A stretch of DNA of 64,000 nucleotides from a virus (Duplodnaviria > Caudoviricetes): positions 384,001-448,000 of IMG/VR virus record IMGVR_UViG_3300009031_000221. One strand, written 5' to 3'. Shown here piece by piece: positions 1,136 through 21,363 of this stretch. A model generated the notes under the pieces. It saw nothing but the letters and a program-made list of their open reading frames with translations. It was not told the DNA's origin and did no database searches. Made by a program: the position numbers and the translations under genes. Numbering within the stretch: position 1 is the stretch's first letter; each line of letters begins with the position of its first letter.

Positions 1136-1160
1136 TTGAACCCTTACGTTAGGGATTCAA
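1136..1160 (-). terminator. Hairpin just downstream of 1163..1582, possible terminator
   Basis: ttgaaccct-tacgtt-aggg(a)ttcaa; no strong U tract. Confidence 0.35.
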
Positions 1161-1162
1161 CA

Positions 1163-1582
1163 CTATTTCAAAGGGGCGCCTGAAGACGGGTTTGCAAGCA
1201 TCCCTTCGTTCAGATTGTTCAAGAAATCCGCAGCCATGTCAATATGCTTTGCTACGGTAAGTTCTCGCAATTCGCGAACTGCGAACATCTGGCAGGCCCG
1301 TAGCAACTGGTAGTACGCTACAATGCCGTCCTCATTATTGTGATTTGCTACAAGGTTACGGGCATGGAGGAGGATAGATGCAGGCGTGCCCATCTCCGTA
1401 GCTGCCTTCTCGAGCAACGGACGGATATGAGGGCGTAGCTCAGGATTCGTTGTCCCAAGCTTGATCAATTCTTCCCGTAGATCACTCGAAGCCCGCTTGC
1501 CCCGAATCAAAGGACGAATGTGGGGACGCAGTTTCGGATGGGTTGTGCCTAATTTGATTAGGTCTTCACGCAAGTCGATCAT
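1163..1582 (-). CDS. Hypothetical protein with two tandem ~26-aa repeats
   Basis: DLREDLIKLGTTHPKLRPHIRPL / DLREELIKLGTTNPELRPHIRPL; AGGAAC RBS. Confidence 0.8.
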   Translation of the reverse strand: MIDLREDLIKLGTTHPKLRPHIRPLIRGKRASSDLREELIKLGTTNPELRPHIRPLLEKAATEMGTPASILLHARNLVANHNNEDGIVAYYQLLRACQMFAVRELRELTVAKHIDMAADFLNNLNEGMLANPSSGAPLK

Positions 1583-1649
1583 GTTAGGTTCCTCGATAAG
1601 TCCTACGGGAGTAGCCCTATAGGGACTCTAACGGGATCCTAATTCCCAT

Positions 1650-2852
1650 CTACCCCTTGGTCAGTGCATTCATGGCAGTGTCACTAAGGAATGTGGTTTC
1701 CGCACCCCAAATGATAACCGCCAGCAATCCGAGGTAGACGATACCCACAATGGCACGATCCCGCTTGGAAATCTCGTAGTAGCTAGGACTAGGGTCACGT
1801 GCTTTCATCTCCATGATGCCCACAATTGCCATGATGGCAAGCAACACGCTATGGAAGTAGATCGTTGCAACCACCCCGAATCCGAATCCGAACTTGATGA
1901 ACCGCTGAGACAATGCCTGCACAATTCGACCCCCGTCCATCGGAAGCATGGGCAACATGTTGAACAGGTTGATCACGAACCCAACGTAGGCAATAGCCTG
2001 GAGCATCGGGGAATGGTAGACCATTGCCAGGATCATCGTGACCAGGGCGCCGACAGTGCCTAGCAGCGGACCACCCAGGCCAACCATAGCTTCCTTCCAC
2101 GATGAAGCGGGCATTTCCTTCAAGTCAATGACGGCACCAACGAAAGGGATGAACATAGGAGCGGAGGCCTTGATCCCCATCCGACGAAGGACATAGACGT
2201 GTCCAAATTCGTGAATTGCCAGGAGGATGACAAACCCCGCAGCGAAGGGCAACCCCCAAGTCCAGGCGTAAACCCCGATCATGAACAACATGGACAGGAC
2301 GAACTTGCCCTTGGCCAGGAGCTTGAGGGCAAGGACTGCCGCCAAGGCAAGGTACTGGTAGCCGGGCATCTTTTTCAGGAGGTCGTGGAACTTCCGAATC
2401 AACCAAGCGAACGGAATGGCGACGACGAAAAGTACGAACATCAAGGGTTGAAGCATCCACTTCTTCATGAACTGGAATGCAGGGCTCAGGAATTTCACTG
2501 CCCTCTTGTAGACAGGTTCTACGACATCAATGGCCTTGACCACCTTCCTGAAGACAGCCCGCTCTAGGCGTTTTTCCCATGGGACGTAATTGTACTCAAG
2601 GTCGATCTCGGCGCCCATGCCCTTGAGGATATCCGCATGCCCGAAACCCCTGGTCTTCAGCCACTTGTCATCCTTGTTGAAACGGGCGTTGACGGTGATA
2701 TCCCACTCAGGGGAATCTAGCAGGATGGCAGCCGCCCGTTCGTAGGCAACATTCGCATCCGTAGCCGCCTTCGCGACAATGCCGCTATCGATGACGGTGC
2801 CCGGAGTTACCGCCTTCAGGTTGGTAAAGAACAATTGCTCAGCGGCGTCCAT
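1650..2852 (-). CDS. Site-2 protease (peptidase M50) with soluble N-terminal extension
   Basis: HEFGH zinc motif, NLFNMLPMLPMDGGRI, multiple TM segments; start moved to ATG 2852 (AAGGAG RBS). Confidence 0.9.
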   Translation of the reverse strand: MDAAEQLFFTNLKAVTPGTVIDSGIVAKAATDANVAYERAAAILLDSPEWDITVNARFNKDDKWLKTRGFGHADILKGMGAEIDLEYNYVPWEKRLERAVFRKVVKAIDVVEPVYKRAVKFLSPAFQFMKKWMLQPLMFVLFVVAIPFAWLIRKFHDLLKKMPGYQYLALAAVLALKLLAKGKFVLSMLFMIGVYAWTWGLPFAAGFVILLAIHEFGHVYVLRRMGIKASAPMFIPFVGAVIDLKEMPASSWKEAMVGLGGPLLGTVGALVTMILAMVYHSPMLQAIAYVGFVINLFNMLPMLPMDGGRIVQALSQRFIKFGFGFGVVATIYFHSVLLAIMAIVGIMEMKARDPSPSYYEISKRDRAIVGIVYLGLLAVIIWGAETTFLSDTAMNALTKG

Positions 2853-3144
2853 GGCGGCTCCTTGTCTGTTTGATTGCGGGCATTTTACCGGTGGCAAGCC
2901 ACCATAGGTAATGTCCCTCACATGGGACATACCCTTTGCCGGTTAGAATTGCATGCGTGTGGCGCGGGTTCAGGGTACTTTGCACACGTCGGGGAAGCCC
3001 TTCAAAGGGCGTGCCCTTCAATTTGGCATCAATGAGGTAGAGGATATTGAACTCAACCCCCATGCCGAAACGAATACCACAACACCACGGGATGCCATGC
3101 TTGCGGCCTTCCTTGGCCCAGTCCATGATGTCCCGAATCTTCAT
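2839..3144 (-). CDS. Hypothetical protein
   Basis: ATGA overlap with the upstream stop at 3141-3144. Confidence 0.6.
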   Translation of the reverse strand: MKIRDIMDWAKEGRKHGIPWCCGIRFGMGVEFNILYLIDAKLKGTPFEGLPRRVQSTLNPRHTHAILTGKGYVPCEGHYLWWLATGKMPAIKQTRSRHGRR

Positions 3145-8589: not shown

Positions 8590-8927
8590 ACTTTGACGGC
8601 GAATGGGTGCGGCGGGTCTAGTGACCGTTCAAATGGTGCGAATGCCATCCTTTTGAACGCATTCAACCTCGATACCTTCCATTCCTTTGCCTTGGCAAAC
8701 ACCATTGCCCATAGTTCATCTTCGGGCATGAGCGTGTATCCATCAAACTGGGGAGGGATGCGTTTAATGTAGATGGGGTCACCCGCATTAAACGCATCCT
8801 CATCCAGGATGGACATGACGACATCCCTTTTGTTCATCCATGGGTACTGCCAAGCGTGCCAGATCTTGTGGCGTCCTGCCTTGGTTCGCATGAATTGAAT
8901 CAGGAATGTGTCAAGTTTGGGACTCAT
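8586..8927 (-). CDS. Hypothetical protein
   Basis: ATGA-coupled to the CPBP gene. Confidence 0.6.
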   Translation of the reverse strand: MSPKLDTFLIQFMRTKAGRHKIWHAWQYPWMNKRDVVMSILDEDAFNAGDPIYIKRIPPQFDGYTLMPEDELWAMVFAKAKEWKVSRLNAFKRMAFAPFERSLDPPHPFAVKV

Positions 8928-9643
8928 GCAAACAATGTCTTGACCAGGGGGCGAACCAAGGCAAGCACCAGCATGTCGTAGGCGAAGTGGACGAAGATGG
9001 CGGCGGGCAGACCATAGGTGAACATGACCCAGAACAGCGCCATGCCGATGAACCAGGAGTTGATGACCCCCAGGATTCCTTGGTACTTGTGCCCGTCACG
9101 GAAGAAGGCGTTCGCAGTCAGCATCGCAGCGCCAACCTGCCAACCAGCCGGATGGAACAGGTAGCCGTGCAGATGCTCCCCGGTCGTCCAGTTCGCCAAC
9201 GGTCCCCACGCATGCATGTGGAACCATTCAGCGATGCCGAAGCCCGCCCACTTGAAGAACAGGAAGTTGCCGAAGACCAAACCACCGATGACACCGTAGA
9301 AGGCGATCCAACGGAAGTAGATCTCCTCGAAGATACCAGCCAGGACGGAAACGATGGTGCCCTGCACGAACATCGACCCCACGGAATCCTCGGCGTCGAA
9401 GATGCGGTTGTAATTTCCCCGCGTGGCGTAGTGCCAGAACGCCCCCAGGAACGCGAGAGTGCCGCCCCAGGCGAAGATAGGCCACACGGACTTGCACCAC
9501 TCGCTGACGGTGCCACGGGAAGTCCACACGCCAAAGACGTGCCATGGAAGAAGTTCCGGCCACCACGTGTGGACGATCAAGATCATGATGGCCGCACCCA
9601 CAACGGTTGGCCCTTTCCAAGATGTGTTCTCGCTATCGCTCAC
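8924..9643 (-). CDS. CPBP family (CAAX/Abi) intramembrane metalloprotease
   Basis: EEIYFR, FxxGH, VHFAYD motifs; GTG start after GGAGGT. Confidence 0.85.
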   Translation of the reverse strand: MSDSENTSWKGPTVVGAAIMILIVHTWWPELLPWHVFGVWTSRGTVSEWCKSVWPIFAWGGTLAFLGAFWHYATRGNYNRIFDAEDSVGSMFVQGTIVSVLAGIFEEIYFRWIAFYGVIGGLVFGNFLFFKWAGFGIAEWFHMHAWGPLANWTTGEHLHGYLFHPAGWQVGAAMLTANAFFRDGHKYQGILGVINSWFIGMALFWVMFTYGLPAAIFVHFAYDMLVLALVRPLVKTLFA

Positions 9644-9681
9644 GGCATACCTCCTTGCCCACACATACGGGGGCTCGGAGC

Positions 9682-9708
9682 ATCTACGCCGATTACGCTA
9701 GAAGTAAG
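9682..9708 (-). promoter_or_regulatory. Conserved promoter motif
   Basis: Exact. Confidence 0.8.
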
Positions 9709-9725
9709 TCACTAAGCGGACTTGA

Positions 9726-9788
9726 TTACCACTCCCCACGCATATAGGACTTCAGGTTCCACTTCTTTCCCGTCACATGGTCATTCAT
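9726..9788 (-). pseudogene. Displaced remnant of a release-factor 3' end
   Basis: MNDHVTGKKWNLKSYMRGEW* aligns without gaps to the RF C-terminus HHVTGKRTTAARYMKG. Confidence 0.65.
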
Positions 9789-9821
9789 GTTTCGGTAATG
9801 TCATTATAGCCGAACGCTAAC

Positions 9822-10511
9822 ATGATTACATGCACATATTGCCAAATAGATCACATTGGGCCAGGTAAACTATGTCCTAAATGTGCGGTTGACCGACGAG
9901 ATGCTGCAAAAAGGCATCGGGAAAAGCTAATCCAAGCAGGATTATGTATTCGATGCGGTAAAAACCCGCCCCGACAAGGGCACAAAACATGTATATGTGC
10001 CCCAGAATACATGAAATCACGGTCGGATCGCCTTGCTAAATCTAAGCAATGTGTTGGATGTGCAGCCCCTCTACCCAAAGATGATACGCGGAAATGGTGC
10101 TCTGAATGTAGATCTGATGATGTTGTGCGAAATCAAGAACGCCGAAAGCAGCGCATAACGTCAGGTGTTTGTTTACGCTGTGGAGAAGACAGGCAAGGGA
10201 ACACTGGTTGGTGCCCTAATTGCCGTAGAAAGCTCCGGGATGAGGAACGCAACCTGAAACTTCAAGTTATTGCGGCTTATGGTGGGGCTTGTTCATGTTG
10301 CGGGGAATTGGATCCCAGATTTCTTACAATCGATCATGTGGAAGGGGGAGGATCCAAACATCGTGAGGAAATTAAAGGGAAATTGTATCGTTGGGTGCGG
10401 AACAATAATTTCCCATCCAGCCTTCAAATACTATGTTTCAATTGCAACTGCGGCAGATCCGTCAATGGAGGGGTTTGTCCACACAAGGATCAGCACAAGT
10501 CTTCGATATAG
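9822..10511 (+). mobile_element. HNH endonuclease with N-terminal CxxC repeats, antisense to neighbours
   Basis: CSCCG...LTIDH...LCFNCN; 3' end overlaps the RF 3' end. Confidence 0.85.
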
Positions 10512-11171
10512 CCTTTCATATACCGTGCAGCTGTAGTGCGTTTTCCGGTAACGTGATGGACTACAATATCGTCCTGCATTCGTATGGTGATTGTCTTATC
10601 CCCTCTTGCGCCCCCACCTATCTGACCTTTCCGCACTCCATTAGTTTTATTGTGCCCCTCGGATTTCTGGGATTCTGCTAATCGTGCCCTCAATAGCTGC
10701 ATAGCAGTTACTTTGTTCTGAGTTTGGCTACGCTCTGATTCACACCGGACAAGAGTTCCAGTGGGGATGTGTAACAGCTGAACTGCGGAATCGGTCTTAT
10801 TCACGTGCTGGCCTCCTTTTCCCCCAGCCCGACAATAAGTCCATCGTAGGTCCTTATCCGCTATAGATTGTTCTTTGTCCGAAGGGACAACCAAAATAGC
10901 AACCGTTATCGTAGACGTATGTACCCTGCCCCGCTTCTCCGTAGGAGAAATACGTTGCCATCTATGGCCACCTGGTTCATTCTTGAATAGGTCAGAAGCA
11001 TTTTTCCCGGTCACGCGAATGACGACAATGCCGGGACGATCTTCTACGAGTTCGAGGTCAAAGGAAGTTCCGTTCTGCGTACCGGACATAGATGCCTAGC
11101 TGGTCATAAACCAAACCCTTCGCATCTGCACCACCTTCCCCCGATCTCACTTCAACGATTATAGTTTCCAC
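10490..11171 (-). CDS. Short class I peptide chain release factor (no domain 1), requiring a +1 frameshift at 11061/11060
   Basis: GTG 11171 after AGGGGG gives METIIVEVRSGEGGADAK...YVRYAERNFL, then TGA; the +1 frame continues DLELVED...HRWQRISPTEKRGRVHTS...GGKGGQHVNKTDSAV. Confidence 0.85.
11057..11063 (-). promoter_or_regulatory. Candidate programmed +1 frameshift site CTT TGA C
   Basis: Same heptamer as the bacterial prfB shift site, exactly at the junction of the two RF-homologous frames. Confidence 0.75.
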
Positions 11172-11180
11172 GTTACCCCC

Positions 11181-12131
11181 TTAGATTCCGAGACGCTTGC
11201 ACACCCACCATGCCCAACTCTTGGACATTTTGAAGTGCTTGTTCAGTTGCGATGCTGTCAATCCAGCGGATCGAAGCTGCTTGAATTCTTCCTCCACGGT
11301 ATCAATTTGGCATGATGCTTTATGTTTGATGTTTAGCTTGTATTGGAAACACGGTGGACAAAATGGGCGGATCATTCTTACCAGGTCATTCCGTTGTCCC
11401 ACACGTGCCAAAGTCAAAATGAAGCCCCTTTGATCTGATCTACGATTCACTTTTGGAGTCCACCCATACAAATCATGTAGACGATCACGCAAAAATATGA
11501 CATCGGTCTCATCGAATCCATCCGTATGAAATACCATTCGATAACCGTGGTTGGATGTTGCACCATCACCCCAATACCAGTGGGCTAGGGAGATAGGGTT
11601 AAGGTCTACATCCTTTGGAATGCACTTCACTCCATCTGGGTACCACCGTTTACGTTGCTCTGTAAAGGGTTGGTATTTTCGGGTACGCAACATAACTGTC
11701 CCTTTGCCCTTAACGATGTTTCCATTGATTTGGCTATATCGAGGTTTTCGGATGCTCCGTGTACACTGAATGCCCGCGTTTATGAGTGCCACTTCCACAG
11801 CATCAACCCAACTTTCGTGTACGGGCGTTTGTTCTAGGCATAATCGACCCTCGCTATTTGCACTCAATTCAATCCAAGCATCCCCAAGCAACAAGCCATC
11901 TATAATACTTAGGAGATTCGGATCTATCAGAAATGTCTTATGCCGACCCAGATTTGACGCTTCTGTGGGTGTCCGCAGATCAACCCCCATATTAACCAAC
12001 CTGCGATGTATCGTTGTTCTTCCGACACCAAGTTTTCGACTGATCTCCGCTTCTGAAGATCCCTCGAGGTACATCGCTTGGATGTGATTATCAGGCAGTT
12101 GTTTACTTGGCCTTCCAACAGGATTAGACAT
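11181..12131 (-). mobile_element. LAGLIDADG-family endonuclease with N-terminal HTH
   Basis: IIDGLLLGDAWI and LAHWYWGDG motifs, HTDGF. Confidence 0.85.
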
Positions 12132-12152
12132 GACTTCCCCCCTCAGGCGCCC

Positions 12153-12181
12153 ATATTATCAGGTACTGAGATTCATGTCAA
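12153..12181 (-). promoter_or_regulatory. Sigma70-type promoter
   Basis: TTGACA-N17-TAATAT upstream of the LAGLIDADG ATG, with a GGGGGG RBS. Confidence 0.7.
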
Positions 12182-12224
12182 CACAATTTCAGTGTGCATT
12201 ATTTACGCTAATATGTGTTATTGG

Positions 12225-12542
12225 CTAAAGGTGCTTGTCAAGCAATTCAATGAGGGAAGCCTTGGGCTTTGCCCCAAAGGTCTTCTCCACTTCCTTCCCA
12301 CCCTTGAAGACCAGCAATGCCGGAATCGAGGCTACTCCGTAGGTATGGGTGATTGCTAAATTGTCATCAACATTCAACTTGCACACCTTCACACGCCCGG
12401 CGTATTCATCCGCTAGTTGATCCACAATGGGGGACAACATACGGCATGGGCCACACCAGGGCGCCCAGAAGTCGACTAGGACAGGCAAGGTGGAATTGAG
12501 GACTTCGCTTTCAAAGTTCTCGGATGTAACTACAACACTCAT
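12225..12542 (-). CDS. trxA: Thioredoxin
   Basis: VDFWAPWCGPC. Confidence 0.95.
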   Translation of the reverse strand: MSVVVTSENFESEVLNSTLPVLVDFWAPWCGPCRMLSPIVDQLADEYAGRVKVCKLNVDDNLAITHTYGVASIPALLVFKGGKEVEKTFGAKPKASLIELLDKHL

Positions 12543-18387: not shown

Positions 18388-20154
18388 CTACTTGGCGGAC
18401 ACGAACACGATGTCAGTGCGACGGTTCTTCGCACGGCAATCGGCGGTCTTCAGGTTGCACACCGGGCTATCCGGGCCATTGCCCTGAGCCACAACCCGAT
18501 TCTCAGCCAATCCCTGCGAAATCAGGAACTGGCGGACTTCCTCTGCCCGTTGCTGGGACAGGGTGATGTTGCTAGCCTTGCTACCCACGTCATCCGTGTT
18601 GCCCTCGATACGGAAGCCCATGCCCTCTACCAGGCCAACCTGCGTCATGACCTGGGCCTTGAGGATGGAGCGTGCCCCGATGTCAAGCGACTTGGAACCC
18701 GTATCGAAGTTGATCGTAACCGGCTTGACCAGCTTCGGCTCCGCATTGGCAATCACGGTCGGGTTGTAGACGGGCTTCTCCGCCTCAATCGGAACCGCAA
18801 CCGTGCCCGTTGCCTGTGCCGCAGCCGCCCGGTGAGACTTCTCATCCTCGTAGATGGCCTTGATGATGCTACCGTTGCGGAGCTTGCTAGGCACGAACCG
18901 CTGCGTCAGGGCAGGCGAACCATCCGGCTCCGTGTACTCGGACCAGATGCTATCCGCCTGCTTGTAGACCGTATCGAACTTCGGGGCGGATCCGTCAATG
19001 CCGAAGTAGGCGACGTTATCACCCAAATCGTTCCACTTGACCCACTCCAGGGATGCTAACGTAGCGTCGTACTTCAGTTCATCGCGGAAGCGGGGTTCAA
19101 CCGTGGAGATCAACCGTGCCGCCGCCTTCTTGTCCGCGTTGCCGATGCGAGCACCCTCGAGGAAGATGCGGGCAATCTTCTCAGCCACGTCCGGATGTGC
19201 CGCCAAGAAGTCGCTACGAACCAACAGGTTATCGGCAACCAACGTATCCGCCTCCTTCGTGGAGAACACACGGTAGGCACCGGGACGGCAAGCAATCGCC
19301 AAGGACACATCCGGCTCCCACAGGCAAGCCACGTCGATCTTGCCCTGGCAGAACAGGTTCCGGGCGTACGTGTAATCGTCCATGCTGAATGACATGTTGC
19401 CCCGTGCCTTTTGCAGTTCCGTCGGGTTCAAGTCGCCATTGGTCAGCCACATTTCGAAGACCGTGTGGTCAGGCGAGTACTTGAGGACGGCGCCCTTGTG
19501 CGTCAGCATGTCCCGTGGGGACTTGACGGACTTGTCTGCAACGCAAGCGTCACCGCCACGCGACCAGTCGATCTGCATGACCGACACGGCATCCACAAGC
19601 GCCTTGGCGAAGCCCGGCAAGTTGATGGGAAGTTCGTCCGTCGTAGACCAGATGAAGTCCGCCGAACCCGACTGGAGGGCGGCGTTCTTCTTATCCGGCT
19701 CTTCGATAAAGATGAACTCCACGTTCAGGCCCGGGCCACTCTCCGGCTTGAGCACCGAACGAACCGTATTGCAAAAGGAACCTGCCTGGGGCGTCAAGCC
19801 ACCGCAAGCCAGGATGCCCGCCGAGTGACCGGGCCACTGCGACAGGGCAACCTTGCACGGACGCTGGCTGGCGCTACCACAGGAACCGGCAACGCCGGCG
19901 GGGACATTGGCTGCCACAGGCGCCGCAACCGGGACATTGACGACCTTGGTTTCCGGCTGACCCGTGGTTGCGTTGATGACCGGCTTGCCGGCGGCATCCA
20001 GCACGGGAACGGTCTGTTGTACCACCGCTGCCGCTGGCGCTGCAGCCTTGTCGAGGAACTTGGGGCGAACGACGAAGTAGTAAAGGGACGCCACAACGGC
20101 AACAAAGGCAATGCCGAGAACGGCTCGGCCCGCAGGTTGGATCTGAATAGCCAT
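18388..20154 (-). CDS. ABC substrate-binding protein fused to a C-terminal OmpA-like domain
   Basis: N-terminal TM anchor; WPG-type SBP; INFDTG...IEGNTDDVG...LSQQRAEEV...KNRRTD. Confidence 0.9.
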   Translation of the reverse strand: MAIQIQPAGRAVLGIAFVAVVASLYYFVVRPKFLDKAAAPAAAVVQQTVPVLDAAGKPVINATTGQPETKVVNVPVAAPVAANVPAGVAGSCGSASQRPCKVALSQWPGHSAGILACGGLTPQAGSFCNTVRSVLKPESGPGLNVEFIFIEEPDKKNAALQSGSADFIWSTTDELPINLPGFAKALVDAVSVMQIDWSRGGDACVADKSVKSPRDMLTHKGAVLKYSPDHTVFEMWLTNGDLNPTELQKARGNMSFSMDDYTYARNLFCQGKIDVACLWEPDVSLAIACRPGAYRVFSTKEADTLVADNLLVRSDFLAAHPDVAEKIARIFLEGARIGNADKKAAARLISTVEPRFRDELKYDATLASLEWVKWNDLGDNVAYFGIDGSAPKFDTVYKQADSIWSEYTEPDGSPALTQRFVPSKLRNGSIIKAIYEDEKSHRAAAAQATGTVAVPIEAEKPVYNPTVIANAEPKLVKPVTINFDTGSKSLDIGARSILKAQVMTQVGLVEGMGFRIEGNTDDVGSKASNITLSQQRAEEVRQFLISQGLAENRVVAQGNGPDSPVCNLKTADCRAKNRRTDIVFVSAK

Positions 20155-20203
20155 GATGTACTATGCTCCTTTCCAGGGTGACTCGCACCCGGCTGATATC
20201 GAC

Positions 20204-20830
20204 CTAATGGCCGAAGAACTTGATGAGCGCCTTGTAGCGCTCCACAGCGGTAGAAATCGTCTGACGAACACCATCCGCCCGAAGATTCACCGCTTTTGCC
20301 TGCTCCTCGGCCGCCTGTTTGGCTGCCGCCGTATCCTGAACAGCGCCCTCACGGCGCGCCTTCAAGGATGCGATTTGTGCATCAAGATCCACAATGAGGG
20401 CATCCAACTCCGCCTTCCGGGAATCGAATGCCACATTGAGCGCCTTGACACGATCCGCCTCGTCCGATGCGACGAGACCCGTGTACTTATCGAGGATTGC
20501 GACGCGCCGATTGGCGTCCGCCATGACGTGTTCCTCGTCCCAGGTGTTATCCACCGCATCCATTGCCCGCACCATCGCCAACTGCTGCTCCGGGGAGAAT
20601 GGAGCGAGGCTAGCACGCAAAGTGATGACGGTTTCCGCCGAGTTACGCCCGGCTTCCGCACCACCCGCGGCAAGGATCTCCTCCAAAGTCCAATCCAAAG
20701 GCGTCCGCTTGACAGCGGTAGCCGCAGGAGCGGGAGCATCCCCAGTCGGGGCCTCGGGCGCCTCCGGAGCTTCCGATGTAGCGGAATCCGTTGCTGGTGT
20801 AATGGTTACAAGTTTGTCCCAAAAAGCCAT
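20204..20830 (-). CDS. Hypothetical coiled-coil protein, first gene of the ABC operon
   Basis: GAGGT RBS, MAFWDKL start, helical C-terminal half. Confidence 0.7.
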   Translation of the reverse strand: MAFWDKLVTITPATDSATSEAPEAPEAPTGDAPAPAATAVKRTPLDWTLEEILAAGGAEAGRNSAETVITLRASLAPFSPEQQLAMVRAMDAVDNTWDEEHVMADANRRVAILDKYTGLVASDEADRVKALNVAFDSRKAELDALIVDLDAQIASLKARREGAVQDTAAAKQAAEEQAKAVNLRADGVRQTISTAVERYKALIKFFGH

Positions 20831-20884
20831 GTGAACCTCATAAGGATACGTTAGGTCCTTCCCGTACATGGGATGACCCGTCCT

Positions 20885-20911
20885 ATCTACGCAACGATGA
20901 TGAAAAGTAAG
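20885..20911 (-). promoter_or_regulatory. Conserved promoter motif
   Basis: Exact. Confidence 0.8.
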
Positions 20912-20925
20912 TCTAGGCTAGAGCA

Positions 20926-21363
20926 TCAAGTCTCAGGCAGTGTTCTATGCAGTGCCCTACGGGCGGCTGCGATGATGCCCATAGCCTTCACACCGTACTC
21001 ATACTTGTTAGGGCCTGAATTGTAGGCTATCAAGGCACGGCACGAATTAATGTCCCTTGTTTTCCGGCAATAGCTCAAGGCCTCCTTCGACGCACTGGAC
21101 AAACCTACAGCACGGATCCTATTCCGAAGAGATATAACTCCAATGTGGATACACCGTTCGGCACCCTTCTCCCTAGCCATCTTCCCATAGCATCCACGGA
21201 CACCCATGGGGTTATTCTCGTGCAAACCGCTTTCCATGACCCCGATAGACAATGCCATCATCGGATCTACTTCCTGTTGGATTGCTTCCTTCTCGATTTG
21301 CGAGGCAATCTGTGGATCGCCCTTACTGCAAATAAGAAGAATCGCTACAACAAATGGACTCAT
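20926..21363 (-). CDS. Lytic transglycosylase (SLT)-like protein
   Basis: DPMMALSIGVMESG, IAYNSG. Confidence 0.65.
   Translation of the reverse strand: MSPFVVAILLICSKGDPQIASQIEKEAIQQEVDPMMALSIGVMESGLHENNPMGVRGCYGKMAREKGAERCIHIGVISLRNRIRAVGLSSASKEALSYCRKTRDINSCRALIAYNSGPNKYEYGVKAMGIIAAARRALHRTLPET

Follow-up and report, generated by a model that had tools for sequence, protein, structure and literature searches.

A stranded release-factor 3' end beside an antisense HNH endonuclease gene in a huge phage: possible trace of nuclease-started gene replacement

This study concerns a peptide chain release factor (RF) gene of a huge phage and a short piece of RF coding sequence stranded on the far side of the HNH endonuclease gene at its 3' end. 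The window, meaning the whole stretch of DNA analysed, comprises the 64,000 nucleotides (nt) at bases 384001-448000 of the 536-kb IMG/VR virus record IMGVR_UViG_3300009031_000221, which is rated complete; identical DNA is present in groundwater metagenomes. In the window, the RF gene is bracketed by two endonuclease genes: a LAGLIDADG_2 gene lies 9 nt upstream of the RF start, and a free-standing HNH gene lies on the opposite strand, convergent with the RF. The HNH gene overlaps the RF stop codon (10490-10492) by 22 nt, an overlap that covers the last 7 RF codons. Behind the HNH gene stands a 20-codon open reading frame (ORF) at 9788-9726 on the minus strand, with its own ATG and stop codon. 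RF homology of this remnant begins at N (9785) and covers 19 codons; the ATG at 9788 and the preceding HYRN are spacer or junction, and not clearly RF. The same layout, including the coordinates, the overlap of the RF stop by an opposite-strand HNH gene set between two RF tails, and the bracketing by two endonucleases, had been described in an earlier sequence-only reading of this DNA, and all of it was reproduced here (Table 1).

Table 1. Features of the RF locus and of two loci of the sister HNH lineage (GC3, G+C content at third codon positions; HMM, hidden Markov model; E, expectation value; tail types are described in the text)
Feature	Coordinates	Strand	Remarks
RF 3'-end remnant	9726..9788	-	RF-homologous codons 9785-9729 (NDHVTGKKWNLKSYMRGEW), stop 9728-9726; type B; GC3 0.74; tail HMM E ~3e-8
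Spacer, 33 nt, remnant to HNH start	9789..9821	.	Common to L007 in alignment, and so assigned to the HNH cassette
HNH endonuclease gene (putative), free-standing, 229 aa	9822..10511	+	phrog_2255; invariant motif residues; GC3 0.37
Active RF C-terminal tail, GDK to stop	10490..10603	-	Type A-HH; RF-family alignment
RF main reading frame, 199 codons, PCRF and RF-1 domains, GGQ, without domain 1	10490..11089	-	Pfam
RF first 37 codons, 0 frame	11058..11171	-	End at CTT TGA C (11063-11057); predicted +1 shift into main frame
LAGLIDADG_2 homing-endonuclease gene, N-terminal helix-turn-helix	11181..12131	-	Pfam E=4e-25; GC3 0.44
Resident flank: membrane protein gene, weak Rce1-like match	8924..9664	-	GC3 0.80; syntenic with L011:5623-6348 (58-60% amino-acid identity)
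L103 sister-lineage loci	345-506, 531-1154, 1151-2023		Stranded 5' copy, HNH, downstream gene; score 50 against shuffle maximum 41
L101 sister-lineage loci	1156-1386, 1271-1885, 1882-3075		Stranded 5' copy, HNH, downstream gene

The active gene carries both RF domains (Pfam PF00472, E=2.5e-29; PF03462, E=6e-12), and the GGQ motif is visible in its translation. It scores under the prfA, prfB and prfH equivalog cut-offs, and is therefore regarded as a divergent short form of class-I peptide chain release factor. On sequence grounds, the remnant is confirmed as a genuine class-I RF C-terminus as well. With a tail HMM built from the last ~45 residues of 121 RF homologues, it scored E=3.8e-8 among 36,547 six-frame pieces. 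When the whole 536-kb genome was searched with the same model, the remnant scored E=2.7e-8, only the active tail scored better, and the next match had E=2.1. The earlier reading had relied on the match between remnant and active tail; its count of 8 identical residues of 15 is correct, but the match does not serve as proof of its own, since shuffled sequences (mean 36, maximum 47; both HNH flanks, all frames) reach the best local pairwise score of 45. The remnant is counted as a genuine RF tail because of the family profile (E ~3e-8), the pairwise test being not significant. It comes closest to a tail found in another phage: 12 of its last 13 residues are identical to those of P0010, an HNH-free relative. 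The small ORF at 9788-9726 is thereby explained, and should be labelled a gene fragment in annotation.

The C-termini of the 120 best of 1,868 RF homologues fall into two kinds. Type B tails are short, with a Trp after the TGK/R position and an end of the form ..RG-W, and type A tails are four residues longer and end in ..EDLW. A subtype of type A, here called A-HH, has HH for DH and has usually lost the RR of GDKRRT. The active window tail is of this subtype, with KTIT in place of the usual KRRT and HH for DH, and the remnant is of type B. In the tree of RF bodies, the window RF is sister to P0003 (support 100/94), the tail of which is 81% identical and the genomic context of which differs. 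The HNH-free RFs P0003, P0004, P0006 and P0007 carry A-HH tails, with neither HNH gene nor remnant; the uninvaded P0008-P0010, whose RF bodies are equally close to that of the window (71%), have type B tails like the remnant and nest within an otherwise A-HH clade (99/98). The sequence-only reading had expected uninvaded relatives to resemble the remnant, and had held that a resemblance to the current tail would speak against it. P0008-P0010 agree with this expectation, while the four A-HH relatives supply half of what was to count on the other side. Across the family, tail type conflicts with the RF body tree, in which well-supported branches force at least three switches of type B and at least four of A-HH. 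As judged from these trees, tails and bodies have conflicting histories in the RF family.

The order of RF, HNH and remnant was found in the window and in two other loci, L007 and L016. L007 contains the nearest RF (73% amino-acid identity), followed by the same 229-codon HNH gene (86% amino-acid identity) with the same 22-nt overlap and a shared spacer of ~35 nt; its type B remnant starts earlier, at DKRRT (HMM E=3e-7), and the contig ends inside it. In L016, a 273-kb contig, an HNH gene 48% identical to that of the window is convergent with the RF, and a 14-codon type B remnant, GRRWTYRDYERGDW, abuts the HNH 5' end. The two tails of L016 are alike beyond shuffles, with a pairwise score of 68 against a maximum of 52. 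An HNH gene also stands at the RF 3' end in L098, where it follows the RF tail on the same strand. It is absent at L008-L011 and at 80 IMG/VR RF loci, none of which shows a second tail. A remnant was present in all three RF loci with this HNH gene and in 0 of the ~84 without it; this comparison of loci shows that the occurrence of the remnant, a stranded RF 3' end, goes with that of the HNH gene, in line with the earlier proposal. Two further loci contain a nuclease gene and a remnant and no RF. The remnant of L102 (2292-2378, 2390-3145) lies antisense at the HNH 5' end (E=5e-9), and that of L015 (3001-3822, 3819-3892) is frameshifted and lies just past the HNH stop. In these, either the RF may have been lost after invasion, or the nuclease and the fragment may have moved to a new site. 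The LAGLIDADG gene was found in no relative among the few compared.

The predicted HNH protein consists of several CxxC zinc-ribbon modules in its N-terminal part and an HNH motif in its C-terminal part. It matches the PHROG family phrog_2255 (HNH endonuclease, E=1.1e-8), and none of the Pfam and NCBIfam HNH models matches it even at E<=10. In an alignment of 10 homologues, D171, H172, N207, N209, H221 and the Cys pairs C157/C160 and C205/C208 are invariant; the best structural matches of a confident fold model are HNH nucleases, but they are weak. The ratio of nonsynonymous to synonymous divergence (dN/dS) against L007 is 0.08, which shows purifying selection at the level of codons, and because of this the HNH is taken to be a working gene. 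Its GC3 of 0.37 is under the genome's 5th percentile. Strong Shine-Dalgarno sequences precede the neighbouring genes, but the HNH start lacks one. In the spacer, a perfect TATAAT is found at 9808-9803 on the minus strand, facing the remnant and the membrane-protein gene; the L007 spacer has TATAAA. The RF-linked HNHs cluster in the HNH tree, with one label change, a result matched by 0 of 500 shuffles. In a sister HNH lineage (L101, L103), the first dozen codons of the downstream gene are present twice, once stranded and once working, on either side of the nuclease gene. Here the duplication is at the 5' end and on the same strand; the stranded copy reads MKR[I/V]LVTAGT..., and the working gene opens with M[K/R][R/H]VLITAGCVY.... 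Since these loci show a duplicated 5' end too, duplicated gene ends appear to be a habit of this HNH nuclease family. By eye, the downstream gene is CoaB-like.

Comparison with L007 separates the history of the nuclease gene from that of its target. DNA identity is ~62% over the RF and 61-65% over its tail, jumps to 82-87% over 9790-10512, a segment bounded by the RF stop codon and by a point ~30 nt before the HNH gene begins, and falls away beyond it, in the remnants. Taken whole, the HNH cassette is 82% identical. Synonymous divergence (pS) is 0.55 for the HNH gene, against 0.9-1.1 for RF body and tail alike. The alignment shows what appears to be a discrete and mobile HNH cassette with sharp boundaries, one with a younger common ancestor than the RF genes. 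The HNH gene is read as a horizontally moving free-standing homing-endonuclease gene (HEG), because the nuclease is shared more closely (82%) than its flanks (62%), its edges are sharp, and its site is present or absent among relatives. Intronless homing in phages is exemplified by the T4 seg and mob genes. The remnants of the window and L007 differ in their start points, and where they overlap only 9-10 of 15-21 nt are alike.

Because the divergence of the tail (pS ~1.0) equals that of the RF body and the HNH pS is 0.55, the present A-HH tail, by this measure, did not come with the HNH cassette. No break in composition or divergence separates RF body from tail. A replacement 3' end travelling with the nuclease, with a breakpoint inside the RF, was not found, as tail divergence and GC3 are those of the RF body. 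Tails younger than their bodies were also sought among six RF loci by synonymous divergence; all values were saturated and none was clearly younger, with one weak hint of a shared tail (L007-L010 tail pS 0.54, 37 codons). The sequence-only reading had held that the HNH element inserted into the RF and supplied a replacement 3' end, stranding the old tail. The stranding and its link to the HNH gene are borne out. That the HNH supplied the 3' end alone does not agree with the differing identities of cassette and tail, the A-HH tails of HNH-free kin, and the missing break between body and tail.

Codon composition points in the same direction for the remnant. Over 468 long ORFs, genome GC3 is 0.57 +/- 0.08. 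In the window, GC3 is 0.37 for the HNH gene, 0.44 for the LAGLIDADG gene, 0.45-0.47 for RF body and tail, 0.80 for the membrane-protein gene, and 0.74 for the remnant (14/19 codons, P=0.0013 against the HNH). In L016, the remnant (14/14, P=0.0012) is set beside an RF of 0.66 (P=8e-10 against neighbours at 0.82-0.90) and an HNH of 0.62, and in L102 the remnant (24/27, P=0.002) is set beside an HNH of 0.62 and neighbours at 0.82-0.98. The remnant is thus like resident DNA and unlike the nuclease in all three loci, and the whole RF sides with the nuclease in two. Along the window, G+C falls from 0.58-0.61 to 0.45-0.48 at about 9750-9790 and stays low through HNH, RF and LAGLIDADG, which form a low-G+C block of ~2.35 kb; the junction between cassette and remnant (~9789-9790) coincides with this step. 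In all six compared relatives the RF GC3 is 0.58-0.79, above the 0.44-0.49 of the window RF, and pS between them is >0.75. The high RF pS together with the GC3 gap points to a shifted composition, beyond age alone. Together, these data show a remnant that is real, HNH-linked and resident-like in composition, next to a cassette with sharp edges.

The reading favoured here, to which we give a probability of roughly 0.55, is that the remnant represents the last 19 codons of an older resident type B RF, displaced by recombination started by the HNH nuclease or its ancestors, and that the whole RF was probably replaced. The HNH nuclease would break an HNH-less RF allele at a conserved place near its 3' end, between the codons for GDKRRT and those for DH, and the break would be repaired from a co-infecting phage whose RF allele carries the HNH gene at its end. 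Repair on the far side would resolve within the old tail, or illegitimately, and the old tail from the break onward would be left stranded behind the nuclease gene. In the window, the incoming unit would most likely be the whole RF frame, body and A-HH tail together, within a nuclease-flanked LAGLIDADG-RF-HNH block; the HNH cassette (9790-10512) itself has passed between phages still more recently. Such homing would be intron-free, as had been claimed before: no intron model fits the region, and an Rfam scan of 9400-12300 yielded no family at E<=1, group I and II introns included.

Mobile genes that replace the end of their target are known from other systems. In fungal mitochondria, mobile endonuclease ORFs (mORFs) carry the C-terminus of a gene, for example at atp6 of Allomyces macrogynus. 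Similar to these, the window locus has a free-standing endonuclease ORF at the 3' end of a gene and a duplicated, diverged C-terminal piece left behind; however, fungal mORFs usually share the strand of the host gene or are joined to it in frame, and encode LAGLIDADG or GIY-YIG proteins, whereas the HNH gene here is convergent and runs antisense over the stop. In the WHO elements at yeast FBA1, an endonuclease gene is situated between the full-length target gene and a leftover 3' fragment, which functions as the downstream recombination site; the element has been demonstrated to carry the replacement 3' end with it, the 3' ends of the targets disagree with the rest of the gene family-wide, and the elements sometimes leave the target locus (Coughlan et al. 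2020, eLife, PMC7282813). The intact RF, the HNH gene and the RF 3' fragment follow the same plan, and the off-target placement in L102 and L015 has its counterpart too. Unlike the phage HNH, the WHO proteins are intein-like LAGLIDADG proteins with zinc fingers that act in a eukaryote and in meiosis. A further difference is that the active tail here is much older than the cassette, that the whole RF may be the replaced unit, and that cleavage is predicted from sequence.

The flanking nucleases call for a third comparison. In phage HEG-islands, two homing-endonuclease genes belonging to different classes flank a conserved phage gene, with a nuclease gene at the edge of the exchanged block; one cognate nuclease can replace another while the cargo stays, and nucleotide identity of the islands from phage to phage exceeds 90% (Barth, Dunham and Seed 2023, PMC10448857). 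The LAGLIDADG-RF-HNH block resembles these islands in having an RF cargo flanked on both sides by homing-endonuclease genes. It differs in that good conservation is limited to the HNH (82%), the RF cargo reaching ~62% identity, and a stranded remnant is not part of the HEG-island description. The locus adds a clear further case to a known type of gene replacement. Its principle has been described before, in yeast, in the mitochondria of fungi and in the biology of phage HEGs; new here are a phage release factor as the target, an HNH lineage faithful to that target down to ~45% identity, and evidence for separate histories of the nuclease cassette and the rescued gene end.

Several observations weigh against displacement of a resident RF by a whole incoming one. 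A foreign origin of the whole window RF is only suggestive and not firm, because its GC3 (0.45) is only 1.4 standard deviations below the genome mean. The remnant GC3 values are based on just 14-27 codons each, and in L007 the picture is reversed: by GC3 the RF there is native-looking (0.63-0.78), and the remnant is HNH-like in its 5' part (7/18), as if borne by the cassette. DNA identity of the RF to the best available relative is ~62%, compared with the >90% of published HEG-islands. No HNH-free variant of the window phage was found, and all 11 contigs encoding the identical RF carry the HNH gene. Moreover, the remnants begin at three different RF codons. The spacer shared by the window and L007, together with unlike remnant starts, needs a later deletion or independent events, and three remnant starts plus a shared spacer with a differing start fit no single scenario.

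A narrower form of replacement, which we consider doubtful, would leave the RF body resident. A mobile cassette made of an A-HH tail and the antisense HNH gene, cutting and rescuing its target in the manner of WHO elements or mORFs, would have inserted into a type B RF at about the GD/KRRT boundary, and the HNH-free A-HH alleles would be former hosts that lost both HNH gene and remnant. The WHO model predicts this layout, and the nesting of type B P0008-P0010 in an otherwise A-HH clade is in keeping with it. The remnants of L007 and L102 both start at the KRRT codons though their HNHs are only ~45% alike, suggesting an old fixed insertion point. The A-HH tails are altered exactly at KRRT and DH, both remnant start places, as a resistant allele would be; the changes from R to hydrophobic and from D to H may, however, reflect structural co-variation and not nuclease resistance. 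The greater synonymous divergence of the tail than of the HNH gene between the window and L007 argues against such a joint cassette, as do the seamless passage from RF body to tail and the four A-HH loci that show no trace of HNH gene or remnant.

It is also rather unlikely that the remnant is cargo. On this view the HNH cassette would bring along, as a portable downstream homology arm, part of the RF tail of a former host, and would have dropped it behind an RF native in both body and tail, with nothing replaced in this genome. The presence of HNH gene and remnant in L102 and L015 with no RF gene nearby would follow from this, and the HNH-like GC3 of the L007 remnant beside a native-looking RF is consistent with it. 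The WHO model likewise holds the fragment to be essential to the element, and A-HH tails occur without HNH in the syntenic relative L011 and the sister P0003. On the other hand, the remnant GC3 in the window, L016 and L102 is unlike that of the HNH and matches the resident flanks, and the G+C step falls between spacer and remnant. Despite HNHs that are 82% identical, the remnants of the window and L007 start at different points and share few of the overlapping nucleotides.

Local tandem duplication of the RF's own 3' end, with the HNH gene landing later between the copies, would account for two same-strand tails flanking the nuclease, but it is very improbable given that the tails belong to different family types, that their alikeness lies within shuffles, that their DNA similarity is only what conserved residues impose, and that the remnant is nearer to tails of other phages than to the local one. 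The remnant has its own ATG and stop, and the earlier reading had raised splicing. An open frame arising by chance, or an exon joined to the RF by splicing out an intron that contains the HNH gene, is nonetheless scarcely credible beside the genome-wide profile score, the Rfam result and an active RF that is complete, with a family-typical tail and stop.

Quite tentatively, the zinc-ribbon HNH lineage could be a dedicated gene drive for phage RFs. It would move whole RF alleles, with differing tails and perhaps differing properties, between otherwise unrelated huge phages, and the stranded tail would be a portable homology arm for any RF, regardless of the genes around it. If this were true, nuclease attack would be the main cause of the two-tail polymorphism of the RF family. 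More generally, the finding shows selfish nucleases to be targeting the auxiliary translation genes of huge phages, and RF evolution, with its two tail types and shifting position, may reflect nuclease-driven replacement and not function. The loci compared can be arranged as stages: the full RF-HNH-remnant order, nuclease and remnant without an RF, and alleles of either tail type that have not been invaded. The locus may offer a workable natural system for studying intron-free homing in a gene that must stay intact, and the reach of co-conversion between divergent phages.

At the other end of the RF gene, the predicted +1 shift at CTT TGA C falls at codon 37, not at the place known from prfB. 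L007 keeps the motif (L007:4025-4035), and an upstream ORF of 37-39 residues is kept in L008-L011 and L016; in 12 RF homologues (e.g. P0012 and P0018) the reading frame is continuous, with no shift. A stranded 5' end of the RF was sought upstream of the LAGLIDADG gene, and the whole genome contains none. By eye, TTGACA and TAATAT, 17 nt apart, are seen at 12153-12181 on the minus strand, 22 nt upstream of the LAGLIDADG start; these could drive LAGLIDADG and RF as a single transcript. A consensus promoter scan of 9400-11400 found none, and terminator-like sites there were at shuffle level.

In the source groundwater runs, the contigs placed on the region were full-length only, and the one joint reported (9103/9464) falls within the membrane-protein gene, at a distance from the HNH gene. 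The public runs listed for the region include no RNA run. A search of phage GenBank with the 3.7-kb region returned two short unrelated matches only. An IMG/VR scan with the single HNH protein gave no match, and alignment-based scans found the HNH relatives. A 2025 freshwater metagenome run contains one 151-nt piece identical to 9853-10003, within the HNH gene, and for the rest of the region weak pieces only, evidence too slight for assigning a second habitat or context.

The genomic position of the RF varies in related huge phages. In L008, L009 and P0003 it adjoins an OmpA-type module, with a ~220-residue gene and an OmpA fusion, and in the window and L011 it adjoins the membrane-protein gene, ~10 kb away from the OmpA module. 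Pfam and PHROG annotation of the genes that follow the RF in L008-L011 and L016 was uninformative. The OmpA module of the window itself (18388-21363) stands without an RF beside it.

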